DNA of 64,000 nucleotides from an uncultured Gammaproteobacteria bacterium. GTDB lineage: Bacteria > Patescibacteriota > Microgenomatia > UBA10105 > UBA927. Location of the stretch: NCBI GenBank assembly GCA_964527425.1, contig CAZGOA010000004.1, positions 35,691 through 99,690 of the forward strand, read 5' to 3'. Positions 7,670-62,849 of this stretch are shown here, one piece after another (position 1 is the stretch's first letter; each line of letters opens with the position of its first letter). The notes beneath the pieces are model-generated. The model was not told the DNA's origin and searched no databases. It worked only from the letters and a program-made list of their open reading frames with translations. The position numbers and the translations under genes are program-made.

Positions 7670-7685
7670 TTTTTAATAAACATAT

Positions 7686-10285: not shown

Positions 10286-10289
10286 CCCA

Positions 10290-12635: not shown

Positions 12636-12656
12636 TGTTGGTGATACAATATTTTT

Positions 12657-37933: not shown

Positions 37934-37935
37934 GG

Positions 37936-39384: not shown

Positions 39385-39412
39385 AGTATTATCGTAAAAC
39401 AGGATGATTACA

Positions 39413-40822: not shown

Positions 40823-40900
40823 ATAGTATCACGCCCTCTGTTGCATACAAAGATTCAGAGTAGTAGTCTTTGATATGGTTATTGTAAGAAAGGAAATATC

Positions 40901-42346
40901 ATGAATGTGTATACAAAACGACGGCCCAATTCAATTGCTATTGTGGGAGTTGGATTAGGGGATGAAGGAAAAGGACGGATAGTTGATGATACGATTGGAT
41001 CGTTAGTAAAGAAGAAAAACATTAATAAAGTATATGTAGTACGCTTTCAAGGGGGTAGCAATTCGGGTCATACGATCGAATTTAAAGGTAAACGAATTGC
41101 TTTGCATCAAGTTCCTTCAGGAATTTTTTATTCTCAAGTTACTGGATTTATCGATAGAGGAATGGTTATTCATCCTGAAGATCTTTCTGTAGAAATTGGA
41201 TATGTTGAAAAGATAATTGGTGATACCAGGGGTAAATTGTATCTTTCTGAAGAAGCAATTTTAGTAACAGATTTAGAGCGAGCAGAGGAACTTCTTAATC
41301 GTAAGAAACAGGGAAAAGCCTCCGGTGGAACAGGAAGGGGCATAGGACCATCGTATGCACATCACTACGATCGTTTAGGATTACACATACACGATTTAAT
41401 GCATACTGCGTGGAAGGAAGTATTGGGTGCTCATTACGATAGATACACGAAAGAATTTGAGGCGTTTGGAGAAAGTATTGCCGATATTCAGGTTCCTGAT
41501 TTTGAACAGTCGAAAACATTAAATAAACCAGTGTTAAAAGCTATTGGTTCGAAAAAGCACTTTCTGGAACGAATGGGTGAAACTCGTTCATGGTTACAAA
41601 GAAGAAAAATAGTTACCAATCTATATCCCTTGCATCATGAAATATATTCGAATATGAGGGCTGCGGTTGTATTTGAAGGAGCTCAGGCGTTAGCGTTGCA
41701 TCCCTGGTTGGGAACAATTCCTGATACTACTGCGTCAAACACGTCAGCTTTTGGTATTCAGGAAGGCACCGGATATTGGCTTTTAAGCATGTTAGAAGAA
41801 GTTATTGGTGTGTTTAAATTAACGTACACATCAAGTGTTGGTGCACGACGTATGCCCACACAAATATATATTCCTAAGGAAAAAGAGTTGCCATTATCAA
41901 ATCCAACGGAAGATCAAGAATGGGCTACGTATGTTATTGAAAAAGCACATGAATATGGTACTACTACAAAACGGAGAAGGGATATTCTTCATTTAGACTT
42001 ACCGATGTTACTCTACAATTGCAAAATGAGTGGTATTACTTCTTTGGCAGGTACACATTTAGATATTGCACGACCGAATACTAATATAAAAGTATGTATT
42101 GGGTATAAAGATAAGAAAGGTAATACAGTTTTGTATCAGCCGGGATTACGGTATTTAGAGGGAGTCGTTCCTGTCTATAAAGAACTAGCAGGTTGGGGGG
42201 GAGAGACAGTATCAAGTATTAAAGAAGCAAAACAATTTCCTAAACAAGCACTACAGTACTTAACATTTATTGAAAAATATTTAGGTTTACCTTTTTCTCT
42301 TGTAACAACGGGACCTGCTCGTGATCAATTAGTAACTATGCGATAA
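40901..42346 (+). CDS. purA: Adenylosuccinate synthetase (long, divergent form)
   Basis: P-loop VGLGDEGKGRIVD corresponds to the GDEGKGK motif. It is paired with purB. Confidence 0.7.
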   Translation: MNVYTKRRPNSIAIVGVGLGDEGKGRIVDDTIGSLVKKKNINKVYVVRFQGGSNSGHTIEFKGKRIALHQVPSGIFYSQVTGFIDRGMVIHPEDLSVEIGYVEKIIGDTRGKLYLSEEAILVTDLERAEELLNRKKQGKASGGTGRGIGPSYAHHYDRLGLHIHDLMHTAWKEVLGAHYDRYTKEFEAFGESIADIQVPDFEQSKTLNKPVLKAIGSKKHFLERMGETRSWLQRRKIVTNLYPLHHEIYSNMRAAVVFEGAQALALHPWLGTIPDTTASNTSAFGIQEGTGYWLLSMLEEVIGVFKLTYTSSVGARRMPTQIYIPKEKELPLSNPTEDQEWATYVIEKAHEYGTTTKRRRDILHLDLPMLLYNCKMSGITSLAGTHLDIARPNTNIKVCIGYKDKKGNTVLYQPGLRYLEGVVPVYKELAGWGGETVSSIKEAKQFPKQALQYLTFIEKYLGLPFSLVTTGPARDQLVTMR

Positions 42347-42358
42347 GAACGGCAGTTT

Positions 42359-43501
42359 CTAGTAATTTTTACCAGGATTTGTAATTATTAAATTGTGAGG
42401 GTGGCTTTCAGTAAGCGAAGCAGTAGTAATTTTTATAAATTGAGAGTGTTCATTCAGTTCTTTAATAGTTTTGCATCCTACATAATAGCATCCTGATGTA
42501 ATTCCACCGGTCATTTGGTTGATTACATCCTCAACAGTTCCGGTTATGGGAACTAGTCCTTCTACCCCTTCTGCAACAAGAACTCTTTCAGAGTAATTTT
42601 TTCCATGAAATTCATCTTCTGACTTTATTTTTGTTCCTTGTTCCATGGCTCCAATAGAACCCATACCTCTATATGCTTTAAAAGAATATATTTCCTGATC
42701 GTCTTTAAGTATATCTTTAAATCGAGCGGGAACATGCTGTTTTTTAAGCATCACTTTCTCTCCTGGTGATTCTTCTGTCTGTGCAAACATTCGTCCCATC
42801 ATAACCATTGATGCACCAGCTGCAAATGCTTTAACCATGTCTCCTGAATATTTAATGCCCCCATCAGCAATCACGGGAATACCAGCTGGGTTACCTGCCC
42901 TGGAAGTTTCTGCTATAGCGGTTAATTGCGGAACTCCCATCCCAGAAATTATTCGTGTTGTACATATCGCTCCCGGGCCCATACCCACACGCAAACAATC
43001 TACACCTGCCTGTATGAGTGCTTGTGCCCCATCGTAGGTAGCTACATTTCCAGCCATAATTTGTATAGACGGATGTTGAGATTTAAGCCACGAAACTGCC
43101 TTAATTATTGAACTAGAGTGACCATGAGCTGAATCGACACAAAGGATATCAACATTCGCTTGAATAAGTGCGAGTGCTCGTTCTTCAAAACCAGATGAGG
43201 CACCAATTGCAGCACCCACTAATAGATTTTTATTTTTTACTTTTTTTATTTCTTCTACTTGATGCTCAACAGTAAGATTTCTGTGAATAATCCCAATTCC
43301 TCCAAGTGTAGCTAAGGAAATTGCTAATGTGCTTTCAGTGACAGTATCCATGGGTGCAGAAACAAACGGAGCATCTAGCGTAATTGTTTTCGTAAGATTT
43401 GTTTTGAGGGAAATGTCTTGTCTTTGAAAATCAGCAAAACGGGGCAATAAAAGGACATCGTCGTATGTTAAGTATTCTGGTAAGTTTGATAGTTTATTCA
43501 T
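42359..43501 (-). CDS. guaC: IMPDH/GMP reductase family protein without CBS domains (likely GMP reductase)
   Basis: [11 protein letters not shown] catalytic loop, TIM barrel, 380 aa, and no CBS insert. Confidence 0.55.
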
Positions 43502-43527
43502 AAGCCTCCTTAAAGAATAGTTATTAG

Positions 43528-44877
43528 TTATATATCTTCTGAATTATCATCACTGACTAGCGTTGCTAAGTTTCTAAGTTTTTCCTGGATGGTATTTAGA
43601 AAGCGTTGTCTTGTCGTTTTATCTTCAGAAGCACGCATCTGTACAGTAAGAATGATGATATCTTTATACAAGTCAACTAAAACATTATGGCCAGAAGGTA
43701 AAAAATCAATGATAGATTTGTACATGGCAGAGTGATCTACATAAATATCTCCTAATAAACGTAAACACATGGTCTCCGCCAGGTCAACCTGTTTTGCAAC
43801 TGGAATTTTGGGAAATATTGCATAATAGTGACGTTGTATATCTTTTAATACATCTGGATTATCCTGTTTTAAGGTCGTTTTATCGAAATCAATTGCTCGA
43901 ACAACAGGGGTCCACTCGTCGGGAGCTTCAAGCCAGACTGCAGGATTAAAATCAATGGTTTTTTGACCTTCATATTCAACTGGAAGTGTATTAATGTTAT
44001 ACCCTTGCTGAGATAGAGATTCTAATGCGCTTCTTCTCACAAATTCAACTGTCATGTTGGTTAAATGCAAATGACCATGTATAACGCCGGCACCTACAAA
44101 ACTATTACCAATTTCCATAAATTGACTTTGTAGTTCGTTTTTAAGCGTTATTATGCGTGACTGTAGTAAACCATTTTTTATGCCATTATTGGCTATAAGT
44201 TCATCTAATTTCGTTTGTATAAAATGGTATGAAAGACCACAAAAGCGCGAAACTATCGTAGTCTCTAGTGTTTCGGGAGAAATATTTAATCGGAATGGTT
44301 CTGGATGATTCTTTCGAGTTTTTTGCAGAATTGGTGCTACCGGGATCACATTCTGAAAACGGGTAGGAGCTGTGATTGAGCCCGTTACAAGATTTTTCCA
44401 GATAAAGGGGGCTTCTGGAGAAGTAGTCAGATTCAATTTATTGATTATTACCCCATGCATGGGATTTTTTTCATTTCCCACAAGGAAAAAAAGAGCACTG
44501 CCATCCTTAATCAATTGTTTAATAATGATTTGATCGTCAGGAATATCTTGCTCTAGTAACGACGAATCTGTGATAGGCAACCAGTATTTGGGTAGTCTTT
44601 GCTCAGTACCATCTGAATAGCCTAAATGCTGGTAGTATATTGCTGAATCTGTGTCTGAGCCAACCCGAAGTTTTCCTTGATCTCGGTAAAACCCATAGGG
44701 CTTTGCTTCATCAATAATAGCTTCATTATTCGATCTGTCAATTTCTATTGATTGTTGGTTGACCATCTGGATTATTAGTCGATAGACAGAAGGGAATGTT
44801 GCATTGACTACTGTATGTTCTTCAGCAAGTAATTCAGTAGCTGATTGTGTTGATTCGTTAGATGCTACTTCTGCCAT
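43528..44877 (-). CDS. Hypothetical protein (449 aa) embedded in the purine-salvage cluster
   Basis: ORF only, with no recognisable motif. Confidence 0.4.
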   Translation of the reverse strand: MAEVASNESTQSATELLAEEHTVVNATFPSVYRLIIQMVNQQSIEIDRSNNEAIIDEAKPYGFYRDQGKLRVGSDTDSAIYYQHLGYSDGTEQRLPKYWLPITDSSLLEQDIPDDQIIIKQLIKDGSALFFLVGNEKNPMHGVIINKLNLTTSPEAPFIWKNLVTGSITAPTRFQNVIPVAPILQKTRKNHPEPFRLNISPETLETTIVSRFCGLSYHFIQTKLDELIANNGIKNGLLQSRIITLKNELQSQFMEIGNSFVGAGVIHGHLHLTNMTVEFVRRSALESLSQQGYNINTLPVEYEGQKTIDFNPAVWLEAPDEWTPVVRAIDFDKTTLKQDNPDVLKDIQRHYYAIFPKIPVAKQVDLAETMCLRLLGDIYVDHSAMYKSIIDFLPSGHNVLVDLYKDIIILTVQMRASEDKTTRQRFLNTIQEKLRNLATLVSDDNSEDI

Positions 44878-44887
44878 AGAGGAGTGG

Positions 44888-45886
44888 TTAGTTTAGAAAA
44901 CTTGTTTTGGTTGCCATGTCGTTACAATGCAATATTTCTTGCGGAGTCAATATATTGTTATCCAGTAATTTTTCATATTCCTTTTTCAGTGAAGTTCTCT
45001 GCATTTCTGGTCCATCGGTATTTATCGTGAATGGAACGTTATGTGCCAGCATTATCTGATAGTTTTTACGCATGTGATCAAAGTTTTTTACCAGTTTGGT
45101 ATGAAGATTAGATGTGGGACATGTTTCTAAAACGATATTATGTTGAGATAAATACTTCATCAATTCCTGATCCTCAACACACGCAATACCGTGACCAATT
45201 CTGTCAGGCTTTAGTTCATCAATCACTTCCCACATTTCATCAATACTAGTTGCTTCTCCAGTATGAATAGTTACACCTAAACCAGCTTCTTTTGCTTGTT
45301 TGGTTAAATGTGCAATATCTTTCGGTTTAAATGCTTTACTACCATCTGTTCGTTCTATTGGTCCAGCTAAATCTATTCCAACAACACCTCGAGATTTATA
45401 CTTTATAGCTTTTTTAACAATAGCCGAGTTTTCTTGATCATTAAATCTTCTATCCATCATTAAGATGATTCCTGCTTTGACAGGATATTTCAGCATAGCT
45501 CTTTCCATTCCTTGAAGTGCAAAGACTATTAAGTGATCTAAATCTCGTTCTCCATTTCTTGAACGTAAAATAGGGTTAAAACGAATTTCTAACCTGGTAA
45601 TATTATTGGTTTTATATGCTCCAGCTACTGCGTGTTGGGCTGCTTGAAAAAGAGCATCAGGAGAAGATTGAATTTTTTCAGTGAGGTCGTATAGCATTAA
45701 GTACTCTTCGTATGATTTTTTTTCATAAATAGTAACCATTTGTTCGAACCCCCAGTAATTTTTTGTGGGGAGTTTTAATCCTTGATCATGTGCCATTTCC
45801 CAGAGCATAGTCGGGGAGACACAAAATCCTAAGTGAGTATGAAGTTCTGTGAGTTCTATGTTTTGTAAAAAGGTTAAGTCTGCCAT
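44888..45886 (-). CDS. add: Adenosine/adenine deaminase family protein
   Basis: TELHTHLGFCV is the metal-binding HxHxxG motif of the adenosine deaminase family. Confidence 0.7.
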   Translation of the reverse strand: MADLTFLQNIELTELHTHLGFCVSPTMLWEMAHDQGLKLPTKNYWGFEQMVTIYEKKSYEEYLMLYDLTEKIQSSPDALFQAAQHAVAGAYKTNNITRLEIRFNPILRSRNGERDLDHLIVFALQGMERAMLKYPVKAGIILMMDRRFNDQENSAIVKKAIKYKSRGVVGIDLAGPIERTDGSKAFKPKDIAHLTKQAKEAGLGVTIHTGEATSIDEMWEVIDELKPDRIGHGIACVEDQELMKYLSQHNIVLETCPTSNLHTKLVKNFDHMRKNYQIMLAHNVPFTINTDGPEMQRTSLKKEYEKLLDNNILTPQEILHCNDMATKTSFLN

Positions 45887-45890
45887 AATA

Positions 45891-47408
45891 TTATTCCCAT
45901 CTTACTGTAGCTGGTGGTTTACTGGTAATGTCGTACACTACACGAGACACATCGGCTACTTCATTTACAATTCGAGAAGAAATTTTCCCTAATACGTCAT
46001 ATGGTATCTTTGACCATTCTACAGTCATTAAATCGTTAGTATTTATCGATCTAATGGCAACAACTTCAGCAAATGAACGTCCATCTCCTTTTACCGCAGT
46101 AGAATAGGCACCCGTCATCACTGCAAAACACTCAAAGACACTGTTATAGAGTCCAGCTTTTTTCATTTCCTCTACGACTATTTCATCTGCTTGGGTTACT
46201 TGATTGAGTCTTTTTTCTGTAACTTCACCCATGATATTGATGGCATATCCAGGTCCTGGCCAAGGTTGTTGATTTACTATCTCTTCAGGTAAACCTGCAA
46301 GTCGACCCAATTCACGAACCTCATCTTTGTAATATGTACGAATTGGCTCAAGAAGTGTAAAGGGTAGTTCTTCAGGCAGTCCACCAACATTATGATGGGA
46401 TTTAATTTGAGAAGCATGTTTACTCCCTTTGCTTTCAATCACATCAGAATAAATAGTTCCTTGTCCTAAGAATGCAACATCAGTATGTTGTTTAGAAATT
46501 TCATCAAAAATATCGATATACAGTTTTCCAATCGTTTTCCTTTTTTGTTCAGGTTCATTAATCCCTTTTAATGCCGTTAAAAAGCGTTCTTTTACAGATA
46601 CAATAATCAGATCAGCTTGAATTAGTGTGGTAAACATCTCTTTAACGCGTTCGGTTGTTCCTGGGCGCATCAATCCAGAATCTACATACACAGGAATAAG
46701 GTTTTTGCCTATGGCTTTGCCAATTAAAAAAGCTGCAACACTGGAATCAACACCACCAGAGACTGCCATAATAACTTTTTTATCACCAACAGTTTTTTTG
46801 ATATCTTCAATAATGGTTTGTGGATCGAGTGAAATAGGGGAAAGAGTCTCTTTACAGACATCAACAACAAAATTTTTAAGAATATCTAATCCCTTTTCAG
46901 TATGATCTGCTTCTGGATGAAACTGAACCCCATACTGTTTTTTCTTTTCATTCACTACAGCGGTATACGGAACATGGGGTGTAGATCCTACAACGGTAAA
47001 TCCTTCCGGTAATGTAGTTACTGAATCACCATGAGATAAAATTGCTGTAATTGTGTTTGGAAGATTATAAAATATTGAATGTTGGTGCTGAAACGATACT
47101 GTCTCTGGACCATATTCTTTCGTAGCATTTTGTACTGTTCCACCAGTTAAATGGGCCATCAACTGCCAGCCATAACATATACCGAGTATCGGAATACCGA
47201 GGGAAAATAGTTCTTTTGAAATTGTGGGAGCACCAAGTTCATAAACAGATGAAGGTCCCCCTGAAAGAATAATCCCCTTGGGGTTTAGCTCTTTTATTTT
47301 TTGTAATGCTTCTTCTGGATACACATACTCATTTGCTACACCGAGTTGTCTGATTCTTCTTCCGATTAAATGAGCTGTTTGTGATCCAAAATCAACAATA
47401 AGTATCAT
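45891..47408 (-). CDS. guaA: GMP synthase (glutamine-hydrolysing)
   Basis: N-terminal class I glutamine amidotransferase domain (MILIVDFGSQ...), SGGVDS ATP-pyrophosphatase motif and the C-terminal dimerisation domain. Confidence 0.9.
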   Translation of the reverse strand: MILIVDFGSQTAHLIGRRIRQLGVANEYVYPEEALQKIKELNPKGIILSGGPSSVYELGAPTISKELFSLGIPILGICYGWQLMAHLTGGTVQNATKEYGPETVSFQHQHSIFYNLPNTITAILSHGDSVTTLPEGFTVVGSTPHVPYTAVVNEKKKQYGVQFHPEADHTEKGLDILKNFVVDVCKETLSPISLDPQTIIEDIKKTVGDKKVIMAVSGGVDSSVAAFLIGKAIGKNLIPVYVDSGLMRPGTTERVKEMFTTLIQADLIIVSVKERFLTALKGINEPEQKRKTIGKLYIDIFDEISKQHTDVAFLGQGTIYSDVIESKGSKHASQIKSHHNVGGLPEELPFTLLEPIRTYYKDEVRELGRLAGLPEEIVNQQPWPGPGYAINIMGEVTEKRLNQVTQADEIVVEEMKKAGLYNSVFECFAVMTGAYSTAVKGDGRSFAEVVAIRSINTNDLMTVEWSKIPYDVLGKISSRIVNEVADVSRVVYDITSKPPATVRWE

Positions 47409-52248: not shown

Positions 52249-52695
52249 ATGAAATGTCCATATTGTTCTCATGATCAAACTGATGTAATAGAAAAGAGAG
52301 ATACGAAGGAAGGTACTGTAACAAGACGCAGACGTACATGTGTGCATTGCCAAAAGCGATTTACCACATACGAGCGTGTTGAACATGTGCCGATTACAGT
52401 AATTAAAAAGGATCAACGTAGAGAAACGTTTGATCGAGAAAAATTAAAACGAGGAATATGGAGAGCAAGTGGAAAGACAAAAATTACAGCATCTGATGTC
52501 GATAGAATTGTTGATGAGGTAGAACGAGAATTAATCGGGGGAGAAAGTACTGAAATTAAGAGTCAACAGATAGGAGAACTAGTTGCAAAAAGATTAAAAT
52601 CGTTAGATAAAGTAGCATATATTCGATTTGCTAGTGTATTTAAACGATTTGTAGACGTTGAGGAGTTTGAAAAAGAACTCAAAAAACTAATTTAA
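52249..52695 (+). CDS. nrdR: Transcriptional repressor NrdR
   Basis: MKCPYCSHDQTDVIEKRD...RRRRTCVHCQKRFTTYERVE is the zinc ribbon plus ATP-cone arrangement. Confidence 0.9.
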   Translation: MKCPYCSHDQTDVIEKRDTKEGTVTRRRRTCVHCQKRFTTYERVEHVPITVIKKDQRRETFDREKLKRGIWRASGKTKITASDVDRIVDEVERELIGGESTEIKSQQIGELVAKRLKSLDKVAYIRFASVFKRFVDVEEFEKELKKLI

Positions 52696-52755: not shown

Positions 52756-52769
52756 TGACAACATATTGT
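52756..52769 (+). promoter_or_regulatory. Putative NrdR box upstream of nrdJ
   Basis: gACAACATATTGTc. The arms ACAA/TTGT flank an AT-rich centre, resembling the NrdR-box consensus acaCwAtATaTwGtgt. It lies 42 nt upstream of the nrdJ ATG. Confidence 0.4.
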
Positions 52770-52810
52770 CTGCTAGCCATTGTTTGGATGGTCATTGCAA
52801 AGGAGGTTTT

Positions 52811-55225
52811 ATGGAATTAACAGGAATTCGAAAACAAGTATTTCTTGACAGGTATGCCGTTAAAGATGAACATGGTAAACCAGTAGAACAAACACCAGAA
52901 GAAATGTGGCGACGTGTTTCTCGTGCTGTAGCAGGGATAGAAAAAACGAAAGAGGCGAAACAGTATTGGGAAGAACAATTTTATGGAGCCATGCAGGATT
53001 TTGTTTTTGTTCCCGGAGGACGAATCTTAGCTGGTGCAGGCACTGGATTTAAAGTTACCTTCTATAATTGTTTTGTTATTCCTAGTCCTCATGATTCAAG
53101 AGGTGGGATACTAAAAACACTTTCAAACATGGTTGAGATTATGTCTCGAGGAGGTGGAGTAGGGATTAATATGTCCAGTTTGCGTCCCAGAGGCACCCGT
53201 GTAACAAAAGTCAATGGATTTTCTTCAGGACCATGCAATTGGGCAGAACTGTTTTCTGTAGCGACCAAAGATATTATCCAGCAAGGTGGTTCAAGACGTG
53301 GTGCGTTAATGTTGATGTTGTGGGACTGGCACCCAGATGTTGAAGAATTTATTACAGTAAAACAAGATTTAACCCGTATTAATGGTGCAAATCTTTCCGT
53401 TTGTGTATCTGATGCGTTTATGGAAGCAGTTAAAAAAGATGAAGACTGGCAATTAGTATTCCCCGATAAAAATGATCCAGATTACGACACAAAATGGGAT
53501 GGATATATGCCAAATTGGTTAGCCTTAGGTAAAAAACCTATTGTTCATAAGACTATTAAAGCACGAAAATTGTGGGATCTTATTGCAGAGGCAGCATGGA
53601 AAAGTGCAGAACCAGGAGTTGTATTCATGGAACGATACAACAAATGGTTTAACAATTACTATTGGGAATATGTCAACTGTGTGAATCCGTGTGGTGAAGA
53701 AGGATTACCCAATTGGGGAGTTTGTAATTTATGTTCTATCAATTTATCAGCTTTAGTTAATGAAAAAGGAGAAATGAACTATAAAAGACTAGCAGAAGTT
53801 GCCAAGATAGGTGTTCGTTTTCAGGACAATGTTGTTGATGCCGATTTTTACGTGTTTGATGAAATTAAGAAAGTTCAATTAGAAGGTGAAAGACGAATTG
53901 GATTGGGAACGATGGGACTGGGTGATGCACTTATTAAAATGAAACTGAAGTATGGTTCTAAGGAAAGTCTTCCTGTGGTTGATAAAATTTATGCCACCAT
54001 ACGCGATGCAGCGTATGAAGCATCAGCAGAAATTGCTGCAGAAAAAGGACCATTTCCAAAAATTGATATAAAAAAGCATTTAGAAGGGTATTTCGTAAGC
54101 CAGTTACCCGAGGAAATTAAAAAGAAGATAAAAAAACATGGAGTGAGAAATAGTGTTTTATTACAACAAGCTCCAACAGGAACAACATCTCTTCTAGCGG
54201 GTGTTTCGTCAGGAATTGAGCCTGTGTATGAGTTTGAATTTTTACGCAGGTCAAGATTAGGTGAGCACATCTTGCGTCATCATTTGTACGAAGAGTGGTA
54301 CAACGAATTTAAAAAAGAACACGGGAGAGAACCAGTAAAAGAAGAACGTCCTGAATGGTTTGTGTCTGCCAATGATTTAACCCCAGAAGATCATGTATAT
54401 ATTCAAGCAACGATTCAGAAGTATGTAGATGCATCAATATCAAAAACAGTAAATGCACCAAGAGCTCATACTATTGAAGATGTAAAGCGTTTATATACAT
54501 TAGCCTATGACTTAGGGTGTAAAGGTATTGCATATATGAGAGAGGGAAGTAGGCAAGGCGTTTTGGAAAGAATGCCAGCTGACGCCAAAGCTTCTGATGG
54601 TAAAGAAGAGCAAAAAATACAGCAGATTCCAGAGGTAAAGCCAAGACCGATGATTGTTCATGGGTCAACGTATCAAGTATCAACCCCTGTTGGTCAAGCG
54701 TTTGTAACAATTAATACAAATGGTGATACTCAACCGCTAGAAATGTTTATAAACGTAGGGAAAGCCGGTAGTGATGTAACTGCAATGGCTGAAGCGTTGG
54801 GAAGAATGATTTCTCTTACGTTGCGAATGCAATCACCAATTCCACCAGCCGAGCGAATGAGAAAAATAGCTTCAGAATTAGTTGGAATAGGAGGAGCACG
54901 ATCAATGGGATTTGGTGAAAATAGAGTGCGTTCACTTCCTGATGCAGTTGCAAAAGTAATAGATAGACATTTTACTAATTATCCAAAATTTCAGGCTGAA
55001 ATAATGGTGCAACCACATGTGACAAATGGTCACACTAATGGAAAAGCGCATGCGCAAGGAGTTGCAGAGGGAGATAATACAACTTCTCAATTACCATTAA
55101 TGGCAGCACAACTACCTCAACAAAAAATGGTGACAGTAGATTTGTGCCCTAAATGCGGAGAGGGTAGTTTAGTGTTTGAAGAGGCGTGTAAGAAGTGTTA
55201 TAGCTGCGGATATAGTGAATGCTAA
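52811..55225 (+). CDS. nrdJ: Adenosylcobalamin-dependent ribonucleotide reductase (class II, NrdJ)
   Basis: N-terminal VFLDRYAVKDEHGKPVEQTPEEMWRRVSRAV is typical of class II RNR. There is a C-terminal Cys4 zinc ribbon, and no nrdB partner. The start is taken at the MELTG ATG preceded by AGGAGG. Confidence 0.8.
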   Translation: MELTGIRKQVFLDRYAVKDEHGKPVEQTPEEMWRRVSRAVAGIEKTKEAKQYWEEQFYGAMQDFVFVPGGRILAGAGTGFKVTFYNCFVIPSPHDSRGGILKTLSNMVEIMSRGGGVGINMSSLRPRGTRVTKVNGFSSGPCNWAELFSVATKDIIQQGGSRRGALMLMLWDWHPDVEEFITVKQDLTRINGANLSVCVSDAFMEAVKKDEDWQLVFPDKNDPDYDTKWDGYMPNWLALGKKPIVHKTIKARKLWDLIAEAAWKSAEPGVVFMERYNKWFNNYYWEYVNCVNPCGEEGLPNWGVCNLCSINLSALVNEKGEMNYKRLAEVAKIGVRFQDNVVDADFYVFDEIKKVQLEGERRIGLGTMGLGDALIKMKLKYGSKESLPVVDKIYATIRDAAYEASAEIAAEKGPFPKIDIKKHLEGYFVSQLPEEIKKKIKKHGVRNSVLLQQAPTGTTSLLAGVSSGIEPVYEFEFLRRSRLGEHILRHHLYEEWYNEFKKEHGREPVKEERPEWFVSANDLTPEDHVYIQATIQKYVDASISKTVNAPRAHTIEDVKRLYTLAYDLGCKGIAYMREGSRQGVLERMPADAKASDGKEEQKIQQIPEVKPRPMIVHGSTYQVSTPVGQAFVTINTNGDTQPLEMFINVGKAGSDVTAMAEALGRMISLTLRMQSPIPPAERMRKIASELVGIGGARSMGFGENRVRSLPDAVAKVIDRHFTNYPKFQAEIMVQPHVTNGHTNGKAHAQGVAEGDNTTSQLPLMAAQLPQQKMVTVDLCPKCGEGSLVFEEACKKCYSCGYSEC

Positions 55226-55282: not shown

Positions 55283-55822
55283 ATGCCAATTTATACAAAA
55301 ACAGGTGATAAGGGAGAAACCTCTTTATTTGGAGGAAAACGAGTATTAAAAAGCTCGGAACTTGTTGAGGTGTATGGATCAGTAGATGAATTAAATTCCT
55401 GGATTGGAGTTATTGTTGCTTCTATTGACCACGAAGAAAAAATAGATTTTTTACACAAAATTCAAGGTGATCTGTTTATAATAGGCGGAACATTAGCAGG
55501 ATGGGAAACAGAACTGAGTGGACTTACAACCAGAGTAACTGAAATGGAGGTTGAAATAGATGCGATGGAGAGTCAACTTCAACAGCTTACTAATTTTATA
55601 TTACCGGGTGGTACTAAGGAGTCTGCAACTGTACATTTAACAAGAAGTGTTTGCAGAAGGGTAGAACGTCAAATAGTGGCTCTTTCTCAAAAAAAATCTA
55701 TTTCTGAAGAAATACTCATATATATTAATCGTTTATCTGATTTGCTTTTTGTATTTGCAAGATTTATAAACAAACAAGCTGGAATTACTGATGTGATTTG
55801 GCAAGGAATTCGAAAACAATAG
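55283..55822 (+). CDS. pduO: ATP:cob(I)alamin adenosyltransferase, PduO-type
   Basis: MPIYTKTGDKGETSLFGGKRVLKSSELVEVYGSVDELNSWIG is the N-terminal signature of the PduO/MMAB family. Confidence 0.85.
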   Translation: MPIYTKTGDKGETSLFGGKRVLKSSELVEVYGSVDELNSWIGVIVASIDHEEKIDFLHKIQGDLFIIGGTLAGWETELSGLTTRVTEMEVEIDAMESQLQQLTNFILPGGTKESATVHLTRSVCRRVERQIVALSQKKSISEEILIYINRLSDLLFVFARFINKQAGITDVIWQGIRKQ

Positions 55823-55827
55823 TACGA

Positions 55828-55945
55828 ATTGAGGAATCACGTTTGAATCGTGAGCTGTGCCGCAACTGTGAACCCTTAAATTGTGTTGAAGGGAAGTCAG
55901 GAACTCCTCGTACTTAATCCCGAGCAGGGTGTTTAGTAACAATAG
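55828..55945 (+). promoter_or_regulatory. Cobalamin (adenosylcobalamin) riboswitch aptamer
   Basis: GAGGAAUCACGUUUGAAUCGUGAGCUGUGCCGCAACUGUGAA matches the conserved core GGAA..GAAnnC..AGCnnG.ACCCGCnACnGUAA, which I recall from the E. coli btuB leader. A downstream AGUCAGGAACUCC segment resembles the B12 box. The element sits in a 165-bp intergenic region adjacent to the B12 genes. Confidence 0.7.
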
Positions 55946-55990
55946 CAACAAAGAGGAAACATTTCTTTTTGCTCTTACTGATCATTAATG

Positions 55991-56017
55991 CCTTCTTGGG
56001 AACAAGAAGGTTTTTTT
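55991..56017 (+). terminator. Riboswitch expression platform: a terminator hairpin that also sequesters the ribosome-binding site
   Basis: CCTTCTTG-GGAA-CAAGAAGG is a perfect 8-bp stem, followed by TTTTTTT and then the ATG at 56018. The 3' arm AAGAAGG is the only plausible ribosome-binding site. A possible antiterminator partner CAAAGAGG lies at 55949-55956. Confidence 0.65.
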
Positions 56018-57337
56018 ATGCCCATGTTAGAGTTGCAACAACTATTAGATCAAGTCAAATTTCGTTTACCTGATACTATTCAAGCACAACGACAGCAATT
56101 GTTAGAAGCAATTAGAACTGAACAAATACACTTTTCAGAAGCCTTAGGTAATACAAAAGACTCTCAAAACTATCTCGGTAGATCGTATGACGTAGTAACA
56201 GATTATGTCACGTTGCGCTGGTACAGAGAACGAGGTGAATGGGAAAAGTATAGACAGCATATAGAGTTAATAAACGCCAATCTTCAGACCAACTTAATGG
56301 AGAGATATAAGGTTACAGAAAGTAGTCTTGAATACGATATAAAGGATAATTTATACCCAAAAGGGTCTTTGACACCATCTTTGTATATGATTCTCAACGG
56401 AGTAGATTACAGAAAAAATTTAGGTTCTGTTGAACAAGAAAGAGAGTTGGCGGAACTGATCGGTTTTCAAGTTATAGATGAGTTTATGGTAAATGTGCAA
56501 ACGCCTATTGGTTCAACTATCGTATCGTTTTCACCTAAAGGAAGTGCTGAGCATACAGAATATAGATATAGATTTGTTGATATTTTTGTCAAACAAAAAC
56601 GAGATCAGGATGAATATGTTCAGTTTACCCGTAAGTTTGTTCGTTATAACAATGATGAATATAGAGAAAAAGCCCTAGAATTGGACCCAACTTTTTTTGA
56701 TGGATATGATGGTCAAGGAGCAGAAGATGCATGGTTTCTCTCTCATCCTGTTGTCACCAATAAAGATGTATCTTCGTTCTTTGATTTAGCTGAAGGAATG
56801 GACTTTACATCATTCCAGAATATTTATCATGACGAGATTCTTCAGTACTTAATACATGATTACTTGAGAATTATTCAAGAGACTACTGTTGATAGAGTAG
56901 CTGTAGCAGCAAGTTTTAACTGCATTATTAACAGAGCCGATGAAGTAAAAGAAAACGTTTCAAATGAACTTAATAAACCATTTTTCCAAAGTAGTTTATT
57001 CTATGATGATTTAGAAACATCTAAAATGTTTTATAGCTATCTTCAAAGTTTAGCAATAAGAAATCCCAAAACTCATAGTGGTACAGGATGCCCTTCTAAT
57101 AGAGGATATAATTTAGGAAATTCTCTTATAGACTCAATTGATGTGTACCGGGCCAATAGTGTAGTTCAATTTATTCCTGATAGATTAGACTACAAAGATG
57201 ATCCCAATTTATGTAGATGTAGTGGACGAGAACCACACTTTCACTGTCCAGGTAAAAATGGTACGTGTAGACATATTATTATTGTTGGTAAAGGAATAAC
57301 AACGTGTCCTATTTGTGGACAAGGGAAGATATGTTAG
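56018..57337 (+). CDS. Hypothetical protein (439 aa; 449 aa if started at 55988) with a C-terminal cysteine-rich, zinc-ribbon-like cluster; predicted to be controlled by the riboswitch
   Basis: ORF with no recognisable catalytic motif. C-terminal CRCSGREPHFHCPGKNGTCRHIIIVGKGITTCPICGQGKIC. The ATG at 56018 lies 7 nt after the ribosome-binding site; the in-frame ATG at 55988 is inside the hairpin. Confidence 0.55.
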   Translation: MPMLELQQLLDQVKFRLPDTIQAQRQQLLEAIRTEQIHFSEALGNTKDSQNYLGRSYDVVTDYVTLRWYRERGEWEKYRQHIELINANLQTNLMERYKVTESSLEYDIKDNLYPKGSLTPSLYMILNGVDYRKNLGSVEQERELAELIGFQVIDEFMVNVQTPIGSTIVSFSPKGSAEHTEYRYRFVDIFVKQKRDQDEYVQFTRKFVRYNNDEYREKALELDPTFFDGYDGQGAEDAWFLSHPVVTNKDVSSFFDLAEGMDFTSFQNIYHDEILQYLIHDYLRIIQETTVDRVAVAASFNCIINRADEVKENVSNELNKPFFQSSLFYDDLETSKMFYSYLQSLAIRNPKTHSGTGCPSNRGYNLGNSLIDSIDVYRANSVVQFIPDRLDYKDDPNLCRCSGREPHFHCPGKNGTCRHIIIVGKGITTCPICGQGKIC

Positions 57338-57374
57338 AACAGAAGCTTTTATTAATTTATGCTATTATTAGCCT

Positions 57375-57818
57375 ATGAACGATCTGCCCGTTCCAGCGCC
57401 ACCTACTGATCCATCACAACAAGATCAACAAGGCAATCAACAACAATCAACTACGAGTGTTTCGTATGGAAGTAAAGAAGGAGAATCTTTTACAATACAT
57501 AGTCCAGAAGCATCGCTTAAAGCAGTTGGTCAAGAAGTTGATTTACCCAAAGAAGTTCAATCAGCGGGGGTACAGATTCAATCGACAACGGTTGCTTTAC
57601 CTCAAGCAGTTTCTGATCAAGGAGTTACATCAGTAGGGTATAATGTATCATCTGTTCCTACACATGGTTCAACAATTACATTGCCGTTGAGTGATAGTCA
57701 AATAGAGTTGGCTCTGAAGAAAAATACGAAGCAATCAATTCGATGGCTTGCAGAATGGTGTGTATATCAAATTAAAAAAATGCATGAAAAGATAATTCCC
57801 AATAAAAGACATTCGTAA
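57375..57818 (+). CDS. Hypothetical protein (147 aa) with a Gln/Ser/Thr-rich N-terminus
   Basis: ORF only. It ends 2 nt before the VirD4-like gene. Confidence 0.4.
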   Translation: MNDLPVPAPPTDPSQQDQQGNQQQSTTSVSYGSKEGESFTIHSPEASLKAVGQEVDLPKEVQSAGVQIQSTTVALPQAVSDQGVTSVGYNVSSVPTHGSTITLPLSDSQIELALKKNTKQSIRWLAEWCVYQIKKMHEKIIPNKRHS

Positions 57819-57820
57819 TT

Positions 57821-60169
57821 ATGAACATCCCTTTCACCGATATTATCTATCAGATTCAAGTTTTCTTCGTTGCGTTTTTGTTTATGACGCTCTCGTTGGC
57901 TGGATTAGTTGTATTAGCGTATATTCTTTTTCTGTTATGGAAATACCGAAACAGAGAGCATCATTCTTTAGAATATGTAACACTTCAAATTGCCGTACCC
58001 AGAGATAATGAAACAAAAATTGATGCGGCTGAACAATTATTTTCAAGTTTACATAGTATTCATCACGGAGGATTTTGGTCGTTTTTAAAACCTGCTGAGC
58101 ATATTTCTTTTGAAATAGTAGCAAAGCGGGAAGATATTCGGTTTTATGTATCTGTTCCGCATCATTTGATGGATTTAGTGGAAAAGCAAATTCATGGGGC
58201 TTATCCAGGAGCTGATATAAAAGAAGTTGAGGAATATACTATTTTTTCTGAACATGGCGAAGTAGCATTTGCAGCATTAATGCCAACAGGTGCGCCTTAC
58301 ATGCCGATTAGAATTTATAGAGATTTACCGGTAGATCCTTTATCGTCTCTCACCTCTGTGCTTGCAAAAATGCAAGAAGGCGAAGGAGCGGCAGTTCAAA
58401 TACTCCTTCAACCAACAGGGGAGAAATGGAGACACTTAGGACAATCATTTATTTCTGGTACTAAAAAAAATGAGGCAAATCCGGAAAAAGCGAGTTTTAA
58501 GGTGGATCATAAAACTCTTGAACAGGTTGAACAAAAAATAAGCAAGCCAGGGTTTAATGTTGTTGTTCGTATAGTAGTTTCTTCTCACAATCATGAAGAA
58601 GCTGAAGCACATCTACATAATATTGAGGCGTCATTTCATCAGTTTACTTCGGAACAAAATCATTTTGGAAAAGTAAGAACACCAATAAAATCTTTTTTCA
58701 TGAAAGATTTTATTTATCGATATTTTCCTATTTTTAATATTCCCTTTTTTAAGCAATATGGAGTGTTAAATAGTGATGAATTAGCAACGGTATTTCACAT
58801 GCCGAATAAGTCCATAGAAACAGCACATATTTATTGGTTAAATGCTAAAAGAGCTCCCGCCCCATCTCAAATACCCAACGAAGGATTATATATAGGTAAA
58901 TCAAAATATAGAGGAGTGGAGCGCCCAATTTTTATTGGAGAAGATGACCGCAGAAGACATACATATATTATTGGGAAAACAGGCACAGGAAAGTCACAGC
59001 TGCTTGAAGAAATGATTATTCAAGATATAGAAAACGGAAAAGGAGTAGGAGTAGTGGATCCACATGGTGAACTTATTATGGCGGTATTAAAAAGAATACC
59101 ACCATCAAGAGCAGAAGACGTGATTTATTTTGATCCTGCAGATATTGAGAGACCGTTAGGACTTAATATGCTTGAAGCCTCTACTGAAGAACAAAAACAT
59201 TTTGTCGTGACATCAATTGTAGGTTTAATGTACAAACTCTATGATCCGATGAAAACCGGTATTATTGGACCGCGGTTTGAGCATGCGATACGAAACGCTA
59301 TGTTAACGGTAATGAGTGAACCTGGAAACACATTTATCGAAGTTGTTCGTGTGTTAACTGATAGTGCTTTTGTACAAGAGTTATTACCTAAGGTACAAGA
59401 TCCGATTATTCGAAGATATTGGACAGATCAAATTGCGCAAACATCTGATTTTCATAAATCCGAAGTTCTTGATTATATTGTTTCAAAGTTTGGTAGATTT
59501 GTTACAAACAAGTTAATGCGAAATATTATTGGTCAATCTGAGTCATCTTTTAATTTTAGAAATGTAATGGATGAAGGGAAAATATTGCTTTGTAATTTAT
59601 CAAAAGGAACATTAGGTGAAGAAAACAGTAATTTTTTGGGGTTAATTTTGGTTCCTCGTATTTTACTCGCTGCGTTATCAAGACAAGATATGCCAGAGGA
59701 GAATAGAAGAGATTTTTATCTCTATGTTGATGAATTTCAAAACTTTGCAACGCCAGATTTTGCTCAAATACTCTCCGAAGCTAGAAAGTACCGTTTAAAT
59801 TTAACGGTTGCCAACCAGTTTATCGGTCAAATGGATGAAGAGGTGAAGAATGCAATTTTTGGTAATGTAGGTAGTGTTATTGCGTTCCGTGTGGGAGTAA
59901 CTGATGCAAATTATTTACAGCATGAATTTACGCCCACGTTTAATGAAATAGATCTAATAAATATAGACAAATATAACGCGTATGTAAAAACAATCGTCAA
60001 AAATGAACCTGTTAAACCATTTAGTATGGACTTAACTAAAAACATGGATGAGGTGAACGCAAAAAAGAATGTTCAAGTAGCAAAAGCAATAGTCCAATTA
60101 TCGCGACTAAAATATGGACGGTCTCGCGAGTTAGTTGAAGCAGAAGTGTCTCAGCGAGCAAGACTGTAA
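57821..60169 (+). CDS. VirD4/TraG/TraD-like coupling ATPase (paralog 2), with an N-terminal membrane-spanning helix and a roughly 330-aa N-terminal domain
   Basis: Walker A YIIGKTGTGKSQ then DPHGEL, and a Walker B-like YVDEFQNF. It is collinear with 4161..6359 along its full length. The membrane-spanning helix is VFFVAFLFMTLSLAGLVVLAYILFLLW. Confidence 0.7.
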   Translation: MNIPFTDIIYQIQVFFVAFLFMTLSLAGLVVLAYILFLLWKYRNREHHSLEYVTLQIAVPRDNETKIDAAEQLFSSLHSIHHGGFWSFLKPAEHISFEIVAKREDIRFYVSVPHHLMDLVEKQIHGAYPGADIKEVEEYTIFSEHGEVAFAALMPTGAPYMPIRIYRDLPVDPLSSLTSVLAKMQEGEGAAVQILLQPTGEKWRHLGQSFISGTKKNEANPEKASFKVDHKTLEQVEQKISKPGFNVVVRIVVSSHNHEEAEAHLHNIEASFHQFTSEQNHFGKVRTPIKSFFMKDFIYRYFPIFNIPFFKQYGVLNSDELATVFHMPNKSIETAHIYWLNAKRAPAPSQIPNEGLYIGKSKYRGVERPIFIGEDDRRRHTYIIGKTGTGKSQLLEEMIIQDIENGKGVGVVDPHGELIMAVLKRIPPSRAEDVIYFDPADIERPLGLNMLEASTEEQKHFVVTSIVGLMYKLYDPMKTGIIGPRFEHAIRNAMLTVMSEPGNTFIEVVRVLTDSAFVQELLPKVQDPIIRRYWTDQIAQTSDFHKSEVLDYIVSKFGRFVTNKLMRNIIGQSESSFNFRNVMDEGKILLCNLSKGTLGEENSNFLGLILVPRILLAALSRQDMPEENRRDFYLYVDEFQNFATPDFAQILSEARKYRLNLTVANQFIGQMDEEVKNAIFGNVGSVIAFRVGVTDANYLQHEFTPTFNEIDLINIDKYNAYVKTIVKNEPVKPFSMDLTKNMDEVNAKKNVQVAKAIVQLSRLKYGRSRELVEAEVSQRARL

Positions 60170-60201: not shown

Positions 60202-60274
60202 GCGCTGGTAGCTCAGCGGTAGTAGCACCACTCTTATAAAGTGGGGGTCGATGGTTCGAATCCATCCCAGCGCA
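60202..60274 (+). tRNA. tRNA with a UAU anticodon (putative tRNA-Ile reading AUA)
   Basis: Folded by hand into a cloverleaf: acceptor GCGCUGG/CCAGCGC, anticodon stem CCACU/AGUGG, loop CUUAUAA giving anticodon UAU, T-arm GAUGG-UUCGAAU-CCAUC, 73 nt. Confidence 0.7.
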
Positions 60275-60308
60275 CACTATTTCAACTATTTACTGGTATG
60301 CTGTAAGT

Positions 60309-60842: not shown

Positions 60843-61501
60843 AAAGAATTTTTGAAGTATCTGATTTTAATTTTCCCTATACAGATTTGCATTTTCCCGG
60901 GATGAATACAGGTGAAAAAATTCTTTTCGCAACGCGAGAATCAATAATTATTTTATGGATTAGACGGATTGTTTTAGCGGTAGTAATACTCACATTATTA
61001 CTATTAAGTGTATTATTGCTTCAGTTTTTAGAAAGATTATTGATTTCAATATGGTTTATTTATCCGCTTTTAATCGTGACAGTAATTAGTGCAGCGATAG
61101 GTGGATATTGGTGGATAGGGCAGACGTATCGAAAATCTATTTTTATAATAACTACACGACGCTTAACGAAAATTATATACACAACACCATTTACCTGGTA
61201 TCAGTTTTCATTAGGCTTAGATGAAATTGCGGATACTGGATCATATTCTTCAAGTTATTTTGAAGCGTTACTACATTTAGGGTATTTTGTTGCACGTTCT
61301 GGTGCTGCAGCAATTAAGAATTTTAAAATAATCAATATTACGTTTGCAGCTGATCTTCATAATTATGTGAATAAGCTATTGTATGTATTTAAACATACCC
61401 CTGAAAAAGTTAATGAATTCCGTCCGTTTATTCCACATTTAAAAGGAGAAAAGAGAAAGAAATTTTTAGAAGCCTACCCTCATTACAAAACAGAGTTTTA
61501 A
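60830..61501 (+). CDS. Hypothetical membrane protein (2-3 membrane-spanning helices)
   Basis: ORF with helices IVLAVVILTLLLLSVLLLQFL and LLISIWFIYPLLIVTVISAAIGGYWWI. Confidence 0.4.
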   Translation: MVDIKRIFEVSDFNFPYTDLHFPGMNTGEKILFATRESIIILWIRRIVLAVVILTLLLLSVLLLQFLERLLISIWFIYPLLIVTVISAAIGGYWWIGQTYRKSIFIITTRRLTKIIYTTPFTWYQFSLGLDEIADTGSYSSSYFEALLHLGYFVARSGAAAIKNFKIINITFAADLHNYVNKLLYVFKHTPEKVNEFRPFIPHLKGEKRKKFLEAYPHYKTEF

Positions 61502-62367
61502 AGCTCTTCCAGTTTTACAGAATCAATTTGTTTATCTTTTATTAGATCCATGTATTTTTCTGTAGTTGAAAGTCTTTTGTGACCTACAAGCTTAGAAAGT
61601 GTAGTGATTGGTGTTCCTGCCATTAAATGATGAGCGATAAATGTATGTCGTAAATCATTTACTTTAGCGCCTTCAATTCCAGCGGCTCTAAAATATCGGT
61701 CAATAGAAGTTCTAATGTTTCTGATTAACAGTGCTTTTCCTGATTTTGTGATAAAAAGTGGAGCGTTTGCTTCTTTTGGACCTGTACGGATATCTAAATA
61801 TCTATTCAATGCTTCTTTTGCTGCTTTGTTGAGAGGTACTGTTCTTTCAGCATGACCTTCTTGAGCTGCAATATGAAGGGTATTTTCTCCAATATCTGAT
61901 AATGATAAATTAGTAAGTTCACCTATTCTGATGCCTGTTTGAAGGAATAACTCTACAATTGAATATGTTCTAATATCTGCTCTGCAGGCATCTCTCAATG
62001 CTCTATATTCTATTTTTGAGAGGACTCTGGGAGGTTTTACTTCATATTTAGGATGTTCAATATCTGCTGCTGGATCATTTACCACGATACCTTGGTTTTT
62101 CATGAATCTAAAATAGGTTTTGATTGAGTTAATTTTTCGGGAAATTGATTTTGCTGTATATCCGTCTGCGGAAAGTTTGCTTAAAAAGCCTTCAATATCT
62201 TCTTTTGCAATTTCTGTTATTGCTTTTTTGCCAATATGCGTCATGAAGATAGTTAGTTGTTCAATATCTTTTTTATAGGCGATAATAGTAGCACGTGCAC
62301 GTTTTTTACTGAGTAAAAATTCGTGAAAAGAATTTAGATTTGCGTTAAGATCAAGTGATGGTTCCAT
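61498..62367 (-). CDS. xerC: Tyrosine recombinase, XerC/XerD-like site-specific integrase
   Basis: N-terminal SAM-like domain (ARATIIAYKKDIEQL), catalytic R...H..R...Y region (LRHTFIAHHL...GHKRLSTTEKYMDL), at 289 aa. Confidence 0.7.
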   Translation of the reverse strand: MEPSLDLNANLNSFHEFLLSKKRARATIIAYKKDIEQLTIFMTHIGKKAITEIAKEDIEGFLSKLSADGYTAKSISRKINSIKTYFRFMKNQGIVVNDPAADIEHPKYEVKPPRVLSKIEYRALRDACRADIRTYSIVELFLQTGIRIGELTNLSLSDIGENTLHIAAQEGHAERTVPLNKAAKEALNRYLDIRTGPKEANAPLFITKSGKALLIRNIRTSIDRYFRAAGIEGAKVNDLRHTFIAHHLMAGTPITTLSKLVGHKRLSTTEKYMDLIKDKQIDSVKLEEL

Positions 62368-62456: not shown

Positions 62457-62849
62457 ATGCACACAAGTATGCAACAGCCTCAAAAACCAAAATACCTTGT
62501 AATACTACATATTGGGATTGTTTTATTTGGTCTTTTTCTTCTTTTTAACTTCAGTTATTCTATTTATTCTTTATGGAGACGAGGCGACATTGTATCAGAG
62601 CGTGAAGAGTATTTGAGAAGATTAGAGAAAGAACAAGATGAACTCAAAACTGAACTTTCGTATACTATGAGACCTGAATTTATAGAGGAAGAAGCAAGAA
62701 ATAAGCTAAATCTAGTTCGTCCAGGAGAGACACTTGTTGTATTGTCGGAACGTGAATCGAGTGAAAGTGCAAATATGAGTATTAATAAAGAAAGTATGCC
62801 TGAAAAAAGAGTTTTATCTGAGTGGTTTCAGTTGTTTGTTGGAGATTAA
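62457..62849 (+). CDS. ftsB: Septum formation initiator (FtsB/DivIC-like) protein
   Basis: N-terminal membrane-spanning helix, coiled coil (EREEYLRRLEKEQDELKTEL) and a C-terminal IEEEARNKLNLVRPGETLVV block, matching the family pattern. Confidence 0.6.
   Translation: MHTSMQQPQKPKYLVILHIGIVLFGLFLLFNFSYSIYSLWRRGDIVSEREEYLRRLEKEQDELKTELSYTMRPEFIEEEARNKLNLVRPGETLVVLSERESSESANMSINKESMPEKRVLSEWFQLFVGD

Follow-up and report, generated by a model that had tools for sequence, protein, structure and literature searches.

Cobalamin riboswitches, represented in Rfam by family RF00174 within clan CL00101, are known to act as OFF-switches, and their classical targets are B12-independent substitutes such as metE and nrdDG/nrdEF. 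The described systems of B12 uptake, namely BtuB/BtuFCD, the energy-coupling factor (ECF) transporter CbrT and the DUF4430-DUF6580 proteins, are likewise under riboswitch control, with genes of B12 utilization adjacent. DUF4430 is a domain of transcobalamin-type B12 binders (PMC4350170). Here we have studied a 64-kb stretch of Patescibacteria DNA (the window, whose positions supply all coordinates below) in which a cobalamin riboswitch precedes three genes that we term A, B and C, the last encoding a homologue of the VirD4-type coupling proteins of type IV secretion systems (T4SS). A survey of the Patescibacteria found 5,713 VirD4-type homologues in 2,918 genomes, 148 of them near virB4, and its authors left exaptation of such proteins possible (PMC12102498). 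An earlier note on this DNA had read the three genes as a single B12-controlled unit. Our analysis leads us, with moderate confidence, to divide the locus into two units whose adjacency stems from descent and which do not form one operon, comprising the riboswitch with A, and B with C.

The three genes are encoded on the forward strand, with intergenic gaps of 37 nucleotides (nt) between A and B and 2 nt between B and C in the list of open reading frames (ORFs), and the riboswitch fronts them as the earlier note had described. The genes for NrdJ and PduO, which that note had placed directly upstream, are confirmed there by Pfam. Across the relatives, the usual order is NrdR-NrdJ-PduO, then a riboswitch cassette, then B and C. 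The G+C content of the window is 37%, and close relatives of its genes are found in assemblies of Gottesmanbacteria and other Microgenomates. An alignment of B was used to fetch 50 species-representative loci; related loci are labelled L001 and so forth. Complete copies of A were available from 15 loci (the window, L001, L003, L005, L007, L009, L012, L040, L055, L057, L063, L064, L065, L066 and L069).

The RF00174 match is the sole cobalamin match in the window, and its 35.1 bits (E = 3.2e-5) exceed the gathering score of 31.5. The riboswitch core CTGTGCCGCAAC[T/G]GT ... AGYCMGGAAC ... CCCGAGCAGG recurs, in a constant position, in 36 of the 63 sequences fetched. When 23 aptamers from different loci were aligned, 28 columns were invariant, and one stem exhibited double compensatory changes in 11-12 of the 23 sequences at each of four pairs. 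Taken together, the Rfam score, the recurring core and the compensatory changes indicate that the cobalamin riboswitch is real, beyond chance. It has the properties of the described family, with a score above threshold, a conserved core and co-varying stems, a hairpin of terminator and Shine-Dalgarno (SD)-sequestering type that abuts the start codon, and adjoining B12-utilization genes. It differs in that the window aptamer begins within the coding sequence of the preceding pduO, and in that the regulated gene A belongs to no described family of the B12 regulon. The relatives match the Cobalamin, AdoCbl or AdoCbl-II models, mostly with scores near or below threshold.

The sequence between the aptamer and gene A has the anatomy of an expression platform. 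Positions 55990-56011 can form a 9-bp hairpin, GCCTTCTTG-GGAA-CAAGAAGGT, which is followed by seven T nucleotides and then by the ATG at 56018. It is the only terminator-like site on the forward strand from 55.8 to 60.3 kb, and the GAAGG within its 3' arm is the sole SD-like sequence for A. Judged by its sequence, the hairpin is an intrinsic terminator that also sequesters the SD of A. The same layout of hairpin, T7 and ATG precedes the A homologues of L001, L012, L055, L063 and L064. At many loci of Gottesmanbacteria AGGAG continues the invariant CCCGAGCAGG directly before the start codon, and control there is probably translational. A conserved CCCGAGCAGGAG provides the downstream gene with its own ribosome-binding site in most Gottesmanbacteria loci.

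The position of the hairpin bears on the length of A. The longest ORF starts at 55988 and would encode 449 amino acids (aa), and the ATG at 56018 gives 439 aa. Because bases 55990-56017 constitute the hairpin and the T7 tract, the true start is most likely the ATG at 56018. Of the range of 439-449 aa given by the earlier note, the lower value is thus the likely one, the start that gives the upper value lying in the hairpin. The N-terminal peptide PSWEQEGFF of the longest ORF, seemingly common to several homologues, is the translated hairpin.

The association between A and the riboswitch is strongly conserved. In all 15 distinct loci, a set that includes distant members of the A family taken from an exhaustive profile search, A is preceded by a cobalamin-type riboswitch. 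Fourteen of these were identified by a match to the Rfam clan; L009 gave no Rfam riboswitch at E <= 1, and was assigned by the conserved core motifs that are nevertheless present. The usual position of A is immediately 3' of pduO. In L057 it lies 7 kb away on the opposite strand, still behind its own riboswitch. Most of the 15 loci have A followed by B, and then by C where the contig goes on, the complete order riboswitch-A-B-C being found in the window, L001, L012, L040, L055, L063, L064, L065 and L066.

In other genomes the slot after pduO is occupied either by the DUF4430-DUF6580 B12-uptake genes, in which the DUF6580 protein, by hydropathy, spans the membrane several times, or by genes of a family that we call X. 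Members of family X have 540-810 aa and no Pfam or NCBIfam match, and in 18 of 19 loci they follow a riboswitch. X is found between pduO and B at L010, L011 and L014-L038, replaces A in most Gottesmanbacteria and is fast-evolving; its C-terminal part shows the conserved motif W.LLAIIW.L.MIRE.G, and its tail is rich in Lys. An hhalign comparison of the core of A (residues 66-234) with the N-terminal part of X (46-204) gave a probability of 27% and E of 7e-4, too weak for a claim of homology. In L011, DUF4430, DUF6580, X, B and C make up one gene string. Tandem cobalamin riboswitches were observed in L028 (7162 and 8212), L063 (716-794 and 2408-2550) and L065 (228-315 and 1300-1379). One of the pair in L028 precedes DUF4430 and the other X, while in L063 one precedes DUF4430-DUF6580-pduO and the other A. 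In each such locus one riboswitch precedes DUF4430-DUF6580 or pduO and the other X or A, so that regulation of the cassettes is separate. The conserved riboswitch linkage, and the slot that A has in common with DUF4430-DUF6580, place A in the B12 regulon, and a B12-related role for A is a reasonable deduction from its genomic context.

What kind of protein might A be? Neither Pfam nor NCBIfam gave a match, and the conserved C-terminal Cys/His cluster is present, so that the earlier note's description of a protein lacking a recognizable domain and ending in a Cys-rich cluster was accurate. A word-indexed search returned about 20 relatives. An exhaustive profile search extended the family to 766 clusters (at 50% identity) at E <= 1e-3, of which 316 were found at E <= 1e-30, and a metagenome scan with a narrow A alignment returned 7 loci. 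Ten sampled members had no Pfam domain and carried the sole name 'hypothetical'. The A profile gave only noise (E >= 0.1) against PDB sequences. Hydropathy gave neither a signal peptide nor a membrane segment for A, which is predicted to be cytoplasmic. Among 159 members, residues E95, R96, R142, E143, E146, S172 (in SPPG), R205, P244 and C358 (in GCGxSxG) are near-invariant, as are five C-terminal cysteines, C410, C417, C430, C433 and C439; in the family one Cys and one Ser are 99% conserved. An additional CRC...HFHC motif in the window protein is present in about one-third of the 159 members. The conserved polar residues suggest that A is an enzyme.

Structure prediction had been proposed by the earlier note as a check on both A and B. 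The AlphaFold2 model of A has a predicted local distance difference test score (pLDDT) of 78 and a predicted template modelling score (pTM) of 0.72, and consists mainly of helices with a small sheet; a fold search gave no convincing structural relative, and comparison of the alpha/beta core of A with PAS-like ligand-binding domains led to no clear assignment. A B12-independent reductase was considered for A and rejected on this model, in view of its helix-rich fold and small sheet and the lack of any reductase-type match. The model of B, which is mostly disordered, has a pLDDT of 59 with helices at residues 107-140.

There is a resemblance between the ends of NrdJ and A. Both are Cys-rich, with CxxCGxG...C and a terminal cysteine. 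A C-terminal tail of this kind is reported to relay reducing equivalents in class II reductases, and by analogy A might be re-reduced via its Cys tail as a tail of the NrdJ type would be. At L009 a thioredoxin gene lies directly 3' of A-B.

From this anatomy we can suggest how A may be controlled and what it may do. Because the 5' end of the aptamer lies within the last part of pduO, the nrdR-nrdJ-pduO message probably includes the aptamer as its 3' tail. When cobalamin is bound, the hairpin at 55990-56017 would form, terminating transcription and burying the SD of A. By the model of the known cobalamin OFF-switches, A would then be made only under B12 scarcity. The protein could serve as an accessory factor of cobalamin salvage that removes the upper ligand, reduces the cofactor or hands it over, and so readies scavenged corrinoid for PduO and NrdJ. 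We propose this role, that of a cytoplasmic salvage factor acting with PduO for NrdJ, tentatively and at somewhat less than even confidence, because A is linked to the riboswitch, is mostly found after pduO, and occurs beside or in place of DUF4430-DUF6580. CblC/MMACHC and BtuM (which has decyanase activity) are proteins of cobalamin processing or trafficking. A would be their functional analogue as a thiol-containing cytoplasmic factor between uptake and adenosylation; it differs from them in having no sequence or fold similarity, and the analogy draws on general background and genomic position.

The described uptake systems share with A their riboswitch control and their proximity to B12-utilization genes. 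They differ in that Pfam and NCBIfam gave no match of A, B or C to any of their families (BtuB, BtuFCD, an ECF S-component or DUF4430/DUF6580), and in that A and B lack membrane segments. No B12 transporter family was found among the scanned window proteins, and phmmer queries with DUF4430 and DUF6580 gave no match in the window. The statement in the earlier note that no B12 transporter is visible therefore stands for the scanned proteins and for these 64 kb, and extends no wider. No literature on DUF8128, DUF6580 or Patescibacteria B12 riboswitches was found.

An alternative role for A and X is that they spare B12. The genes would be switched on when adenosylcobalamin (AdoCbl) is too low for NrdJ, and would help to supply deoxynucleotides by another route, possibly with B-C translocating DNA. 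This draws on the classical coupling of B12 riboswitches to B12-independent substitutes, and agrees with the placement of the locus among nucleotide-salvage genes, the linkage of B-C to the reductase operon and the weak NCBIfam matches of C, which include DNA-translocating ATPases. However, the predicted fold of A shares nothing with reductases, kinases or nucleases, no activity producing deoxynucleoside triphosphates can be deduced for it, and in every locus A stands beside pduO and B12-uptake genes and not beside nucleotide enzymes. We consider B12 sparing unlikely.

The evidence that sets B and C apart from the riboswitch comes from their distribution. Wherever the contig goes on in the 50 species-representative loci, B is directly followed by an orthologue of C and is thus its constant partner. 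Identities between loci are 76-90% for C, about 45-55% for B and about 34% for A. The N-terminal two-thirds of B are predicted to be disordered, with repeats of the LPKEV..AGV type, and are followed by a conserved C-terminal helical hairpin, LPLTD.QI..GLK.....SIRWLAEWCV; no Pfam domain was found in B or in 41 homologues, and NCBIfam gave no match to B. Six distant loci (L044, L054, L058, L060, L061 and L062) have B-C immediately after the class III genes NrdD-NrdG, and no pduO, riboswitch, A or X. NrdD, the class III reductase, and NrdG, its radical-SAM activase, do not use B12. The order in these six loci is NrdR-NrdD-NrdG and then B-C, at about positions 3.5-10 kb of each locus. Furthermore, the gap from pduO to B is 28 nt in L047 and 15 nt in L050, so that there is no space for a riboswitch.

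B also appears to have its own promoter. In 41 of 56 distinct loci, B has an in-frame ATG that is preceded at 6-7 nt (range 6-9) by an extended -10 element, TGnTAnnAT. The background of this element is 3.2e-4 per base in these sequences; upstream of the riboswitches it is found in 1 of 38. Within the window, just four gene starts have this arrangement, those of B, of the genes at 12657 and 21305 (reverse strand), and 6335, which lies in C2, a paralogue of C, and suggests that the real start of C2 is the ATG at 6335. B has no SD sequence upstream. By standard promoter geometry, an ATG that follows the -10 element after six bases has its A as the start of the transcript. From this spacing, with which the missing SD agrees, the B-C message is predicted to be leaderless, starting at the ATG of B from its own promoter. 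Because of the NrdD-NrdG loci, the short gaps in L047 and L050 and the conserved promoter, B-C most likely constitutes a unit separate from riboswitch-A, tied to reductase operons rather than to B12. Its conservation in the Patescibacteria behind ribonucleotide reductase operons of either class points to a role connected with DNA precursors or DNA handling.

Several observations weigh against this division. No terminator was found in either intergenic gap, A-B or B-C, and transcripts permitted by the riboswitch are likely to run into B-C, possibly adding a minor B12 effect. The strict -10 motif is missing in 15 of the 56 loci, and the promoter is deduced from sequence. A and B remain adjacent in a lineage where C is not adjacent (L005, L007 and L009), which may reflect a functional tie between A and B. 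Moreover, in lineages with reduced genomes, gene order can stay conserved when there is no functional coupling.

These data can now be set against the proposal of the earlier note, which places all three genes in a single B12-repressed operon and has the VirD4-like ATPase drive a non-canonical cobalamin importer or a B12-sparing device. The genes are co-directional, tightly spaced and uninterrupted by a terminator, the order riboswitch-A-B-C recurs in the window and eight related loci, the window has no canonical B12 transporter, and L011 has its single string DUF4430-DUF6580-X-B-C. Yet B-C stands behind the B12-independent NrdD-NrdG in six loci that have neither riboswitch nor pduO, and follows pduO in L047 and L050 where the riboswitch is absent. 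The sequences further predict a conserved leaderless promoter at B, the rate of evolution of C is far below those of A, B and X, and a soluble A with a C that has only an N-terminal anchor offers no plausible channel. What survives of the proposed B12-controlled unit is the riboswitch with A; B and C fall outside it. Similarly, the conservation of the trio behind the riboswitch, when checked in relatives, held for A (15 of 15) and did not hold for B-C, which also occurs in loci lacking any riboswitch. The note had named an independent promoter as an observation that would count against it, and the computational search for one gave the putative extended -10 element at B. We therefore find no support for the co-option of a T4SS-type motor for B12 acquisition, which has a low probability, and regard the single operon with its importer as very unlikely.

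Returning to B-C as a separate unit, we ask what C may be. The earlier note had recognized in C a second VirD4/TraG-like copy with an N-terminal membrane helix, and this is borne out by Pfam, by C2 at 36% identity and by a hydrophobic anchor at residues 8-41. Matches above cut-off were obtained to TrwB_AAD_bind, TraG-D_C, T4SS-DNA_transf and DUF87, with scores of 27.6 for PF10412 (cut-off 20.5) and 24.7 for PF02534 (cut-off 20.1). The alignment of C with TrwB (1e9r) spans the Walker A sequence GxTGTGKS and the DE motif of Walker B. The extra domain of about 300-330 aa, which had been called novel, is already catalogued as DUF8128 in precomputed Pfam annotation. C therefore has the membrane anchor, the Walker motifs and the TrwB_AAD_bind, T4SS-DNA_transf and TraG-D_C domains of the VirD4/TrwB/TraD coupling proteins. 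It differs from them in its additional DUF8128, and in falling well below the cut-offs of the named TraD/VirD4 equivalogs (at best TIGR03743, with 54.6 bits against 366); weak NCBIfam matches include DNA-translocating ATPases. It is also distant from VirB4, some 45 kb separating it from the window VirB4 gene, and it is paired with the small protein B and not with a relaxase or T4SS genes. Throughout the 50 species-representative loci, C is found behind reductase operons rather than encoded with a T4SS or relaxase.

C2 is placed differently. It lies next to the VirB4 cluster, adjoining genes of PrgI/VirB3-like, VirB4-like and M23 peptidase type (by Pfam, 2130-14701), and has no N-terminal membrane anchor by hydropathy. 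These genes (the peptidase being of 781 aa) make up a T4SS cluster of the Gram-positive type, which stands beside dnaN and dnaA, hence next to a probable replication origin.

FtsK was also considered as an identity for C, and was dropped, there being no FtsK_SpoIIIE match and a positional lead only; PF01580 was unreported for C at E <= 0.1, and in C2 gave E of 0.0087, below cut-off. Like the FtsK of the FtsK-XerCD system, C belongs to the FtsK-HerA superfamily, is membrane-anchored and often has a Xer-type gene and DivIC downstream. Unlike FtsK, it has neither a significant FtsK_SpoIIIE match nor a recognizable gamma domain, and the link is one of position. A Xer-type recombinase gene (reverse strand) and DivIC (forward strand) are located within 7 kb 3' of C in 27 loci, a recurrence that hints at a tie of C to chromosome segregation or division. 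Overall, C looks like a paralogue of the type IV coupling proteins with another role, linked to ribonucleotide reductase, and a DNA-related function of B-C (DNA translocation in segregation or uptake) seems more likely than one concerned with the cofactor.

A secretory role for C has to be weighed here. A and X might be Sec-less cargo which, under B12 starvation, C would export through the T4SS with B as adaptor, so that cobalamin is taken from the host. A and X have no signal peptides and evolve fast, C is highly conserved, the tail of X is rich in Lys, in nearly all cases the gene directly 5' of B-C is A or X, and the window has a T4SS gene cluster. Against this, B-C is present in many genomes that have neither A nor X and is predicted to be under an independent promoter; A is apart from B-C in L057 and has no C in L005, L007 and L009. 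The near-invariant, catalytic-looking residues of A suggest an intracellular enzyme, and no secretion signal is defined. We regard such export as highly improbable. A broader proposal is that A, and perhaps X, represents a new class of cobalamin-handling protein in the Patescibacteria, induced on B12 starvation. In its modest form, A is a cytoplasmic thiol/zinc corrinoid-processing enzyme feeding PduO and NrdJ, and in its bold form it is exported to the host by C and B through the T4SS; we hold this proposal to be possible, and rather doubtful.

Least credible of all is that the riboswitch is mainly a conditional terminator of nrdR-nrdJ-pduO with A an incidental passenger having no B12 role, since the overlap of the aptamer with the pduO stop codon and the lack of a preceding extended -10 motif at 37 of 38 riboswitches are countered by the riboswitch that A retains in L057 away from pduO on the opposite strand, by CCCGAGCAGGAG acting as the ribosome-binding site of the downstream gene in most Gottesmanbacteria loci, and by the separate riboswitches of separate cassettes in L028 and L063.

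Table 1. Positions of the genes, RNA elements and other features of the window
Feature	Position	Strand	Basis or remark
C2, paralogue of C	4161-6359	-	BLASTP, 36% identity
T4SS cluster, Gram-positive type, with adjoining dnaN and dnaA	4161-16316
VirB4-like gene	8345-10285
dnaN	13592-14701
dnaA	14892-16316
Purine block	36893-47408
449-aa ORF in purine block	43528-44877	-	no Pfam match
nrdR	52249-52695	+	Pfam match
nrdJ, AdoCbl-dependent class II reductase	52766-55225	+	Pfam match
Cys-rich end of NrdJ	55150-55225
pduO, adenosyltransferase	55283-55822	+	Pfam match; stop codon 55820-55822
Cobalamin riboswitch aptamer	55787-55926	+	RF00174; overlaps 3' end and stop codon of pduO
Putative expression platform, hairpin and T7	55990-56017	+	3' arm contains GAAGG SD of gene A
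Gene A, 439 aa	56018-57337	+	predicted cytoplasmic; C-terminal Cys/His zinc-ribbon-like cluster
Cys-rich end of A	57215-57337
Extended -10 element TGCTATTAT	57360-57368	+	6 nt before ATG (57375) of B
Gene B, 147 aa	57375-57818	+	constant partner of C
Gene C, 782 aa	57821-60169	+	membrane anchor, DUF8128, VirD4/TrwB-type P-loop ATPase, TraG-D_C
tRNA-Ile, anticodon UAU	60202-60275		directly 3' of C
Xer-type tyrosine recombinase gene	61498-62367	-	precomputed Pfam on syntenic L001 genes
DivIC gene	62457-62849	+	precomputed Pfam on syntenic L001 genes

The surroundings of the locus (Table 1) are rich in nucleotide salvage, with genes for IMP dehydrogenase, GMP reductase, adenylosuccinate enzymes, adenosine deaminase, a phosphoribosyltransferase, and HD and NUDIX hydrolases. 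The reductase operon closely follows a dense block of purine interconversion genes, comprising IMP dehydrogenase, GMP reductase, adenylosuccinate lyase and synthetase, adenosine deaminase and GMP synthase, together with an ORF of 449 aa. The tRNA gene that follows C has the anticodon UAU; most bacteria decode AUA with a lysidine-modified CAU tRNA. A tRNA gene is also found 3' of C in L001, L010, L011, L012, L055, L057 and L064. In several loci the nrdJ ORF is either enlarged (1150-1610 aa) or present in two or three pieces (L021, 1540-6372; L038, 3482-7054; L040, 3916-7374; and L046, L051, L052 and L057); inteins or other insertions would fit this pattern. In L012 a match to an Rfam group I intron (12923-13110, reverse strand, 68.8 bits) lies close to a tRNA gene.

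Tight spacing downstream of a riboswitch is evidently insufficient to deduce co-regulation. It is not obvious why a VirD4-like ATPase should be linked to reductase operons, whichever their class, and the B-C pair provides a genomic context for the coupling-protein homologues of the Patescibacteria that are distant from virB4 (cf. PMC12102498). Patescibacteria cannot make B12, and many need the AdoCbl-requiring NrdJ for every deoxynucleotide. The A family, with its at least 766 unannotated clusters and an apparently obligatory cobalamin riboswitch, is a candidate for a missing step in the supply of this cofactor.

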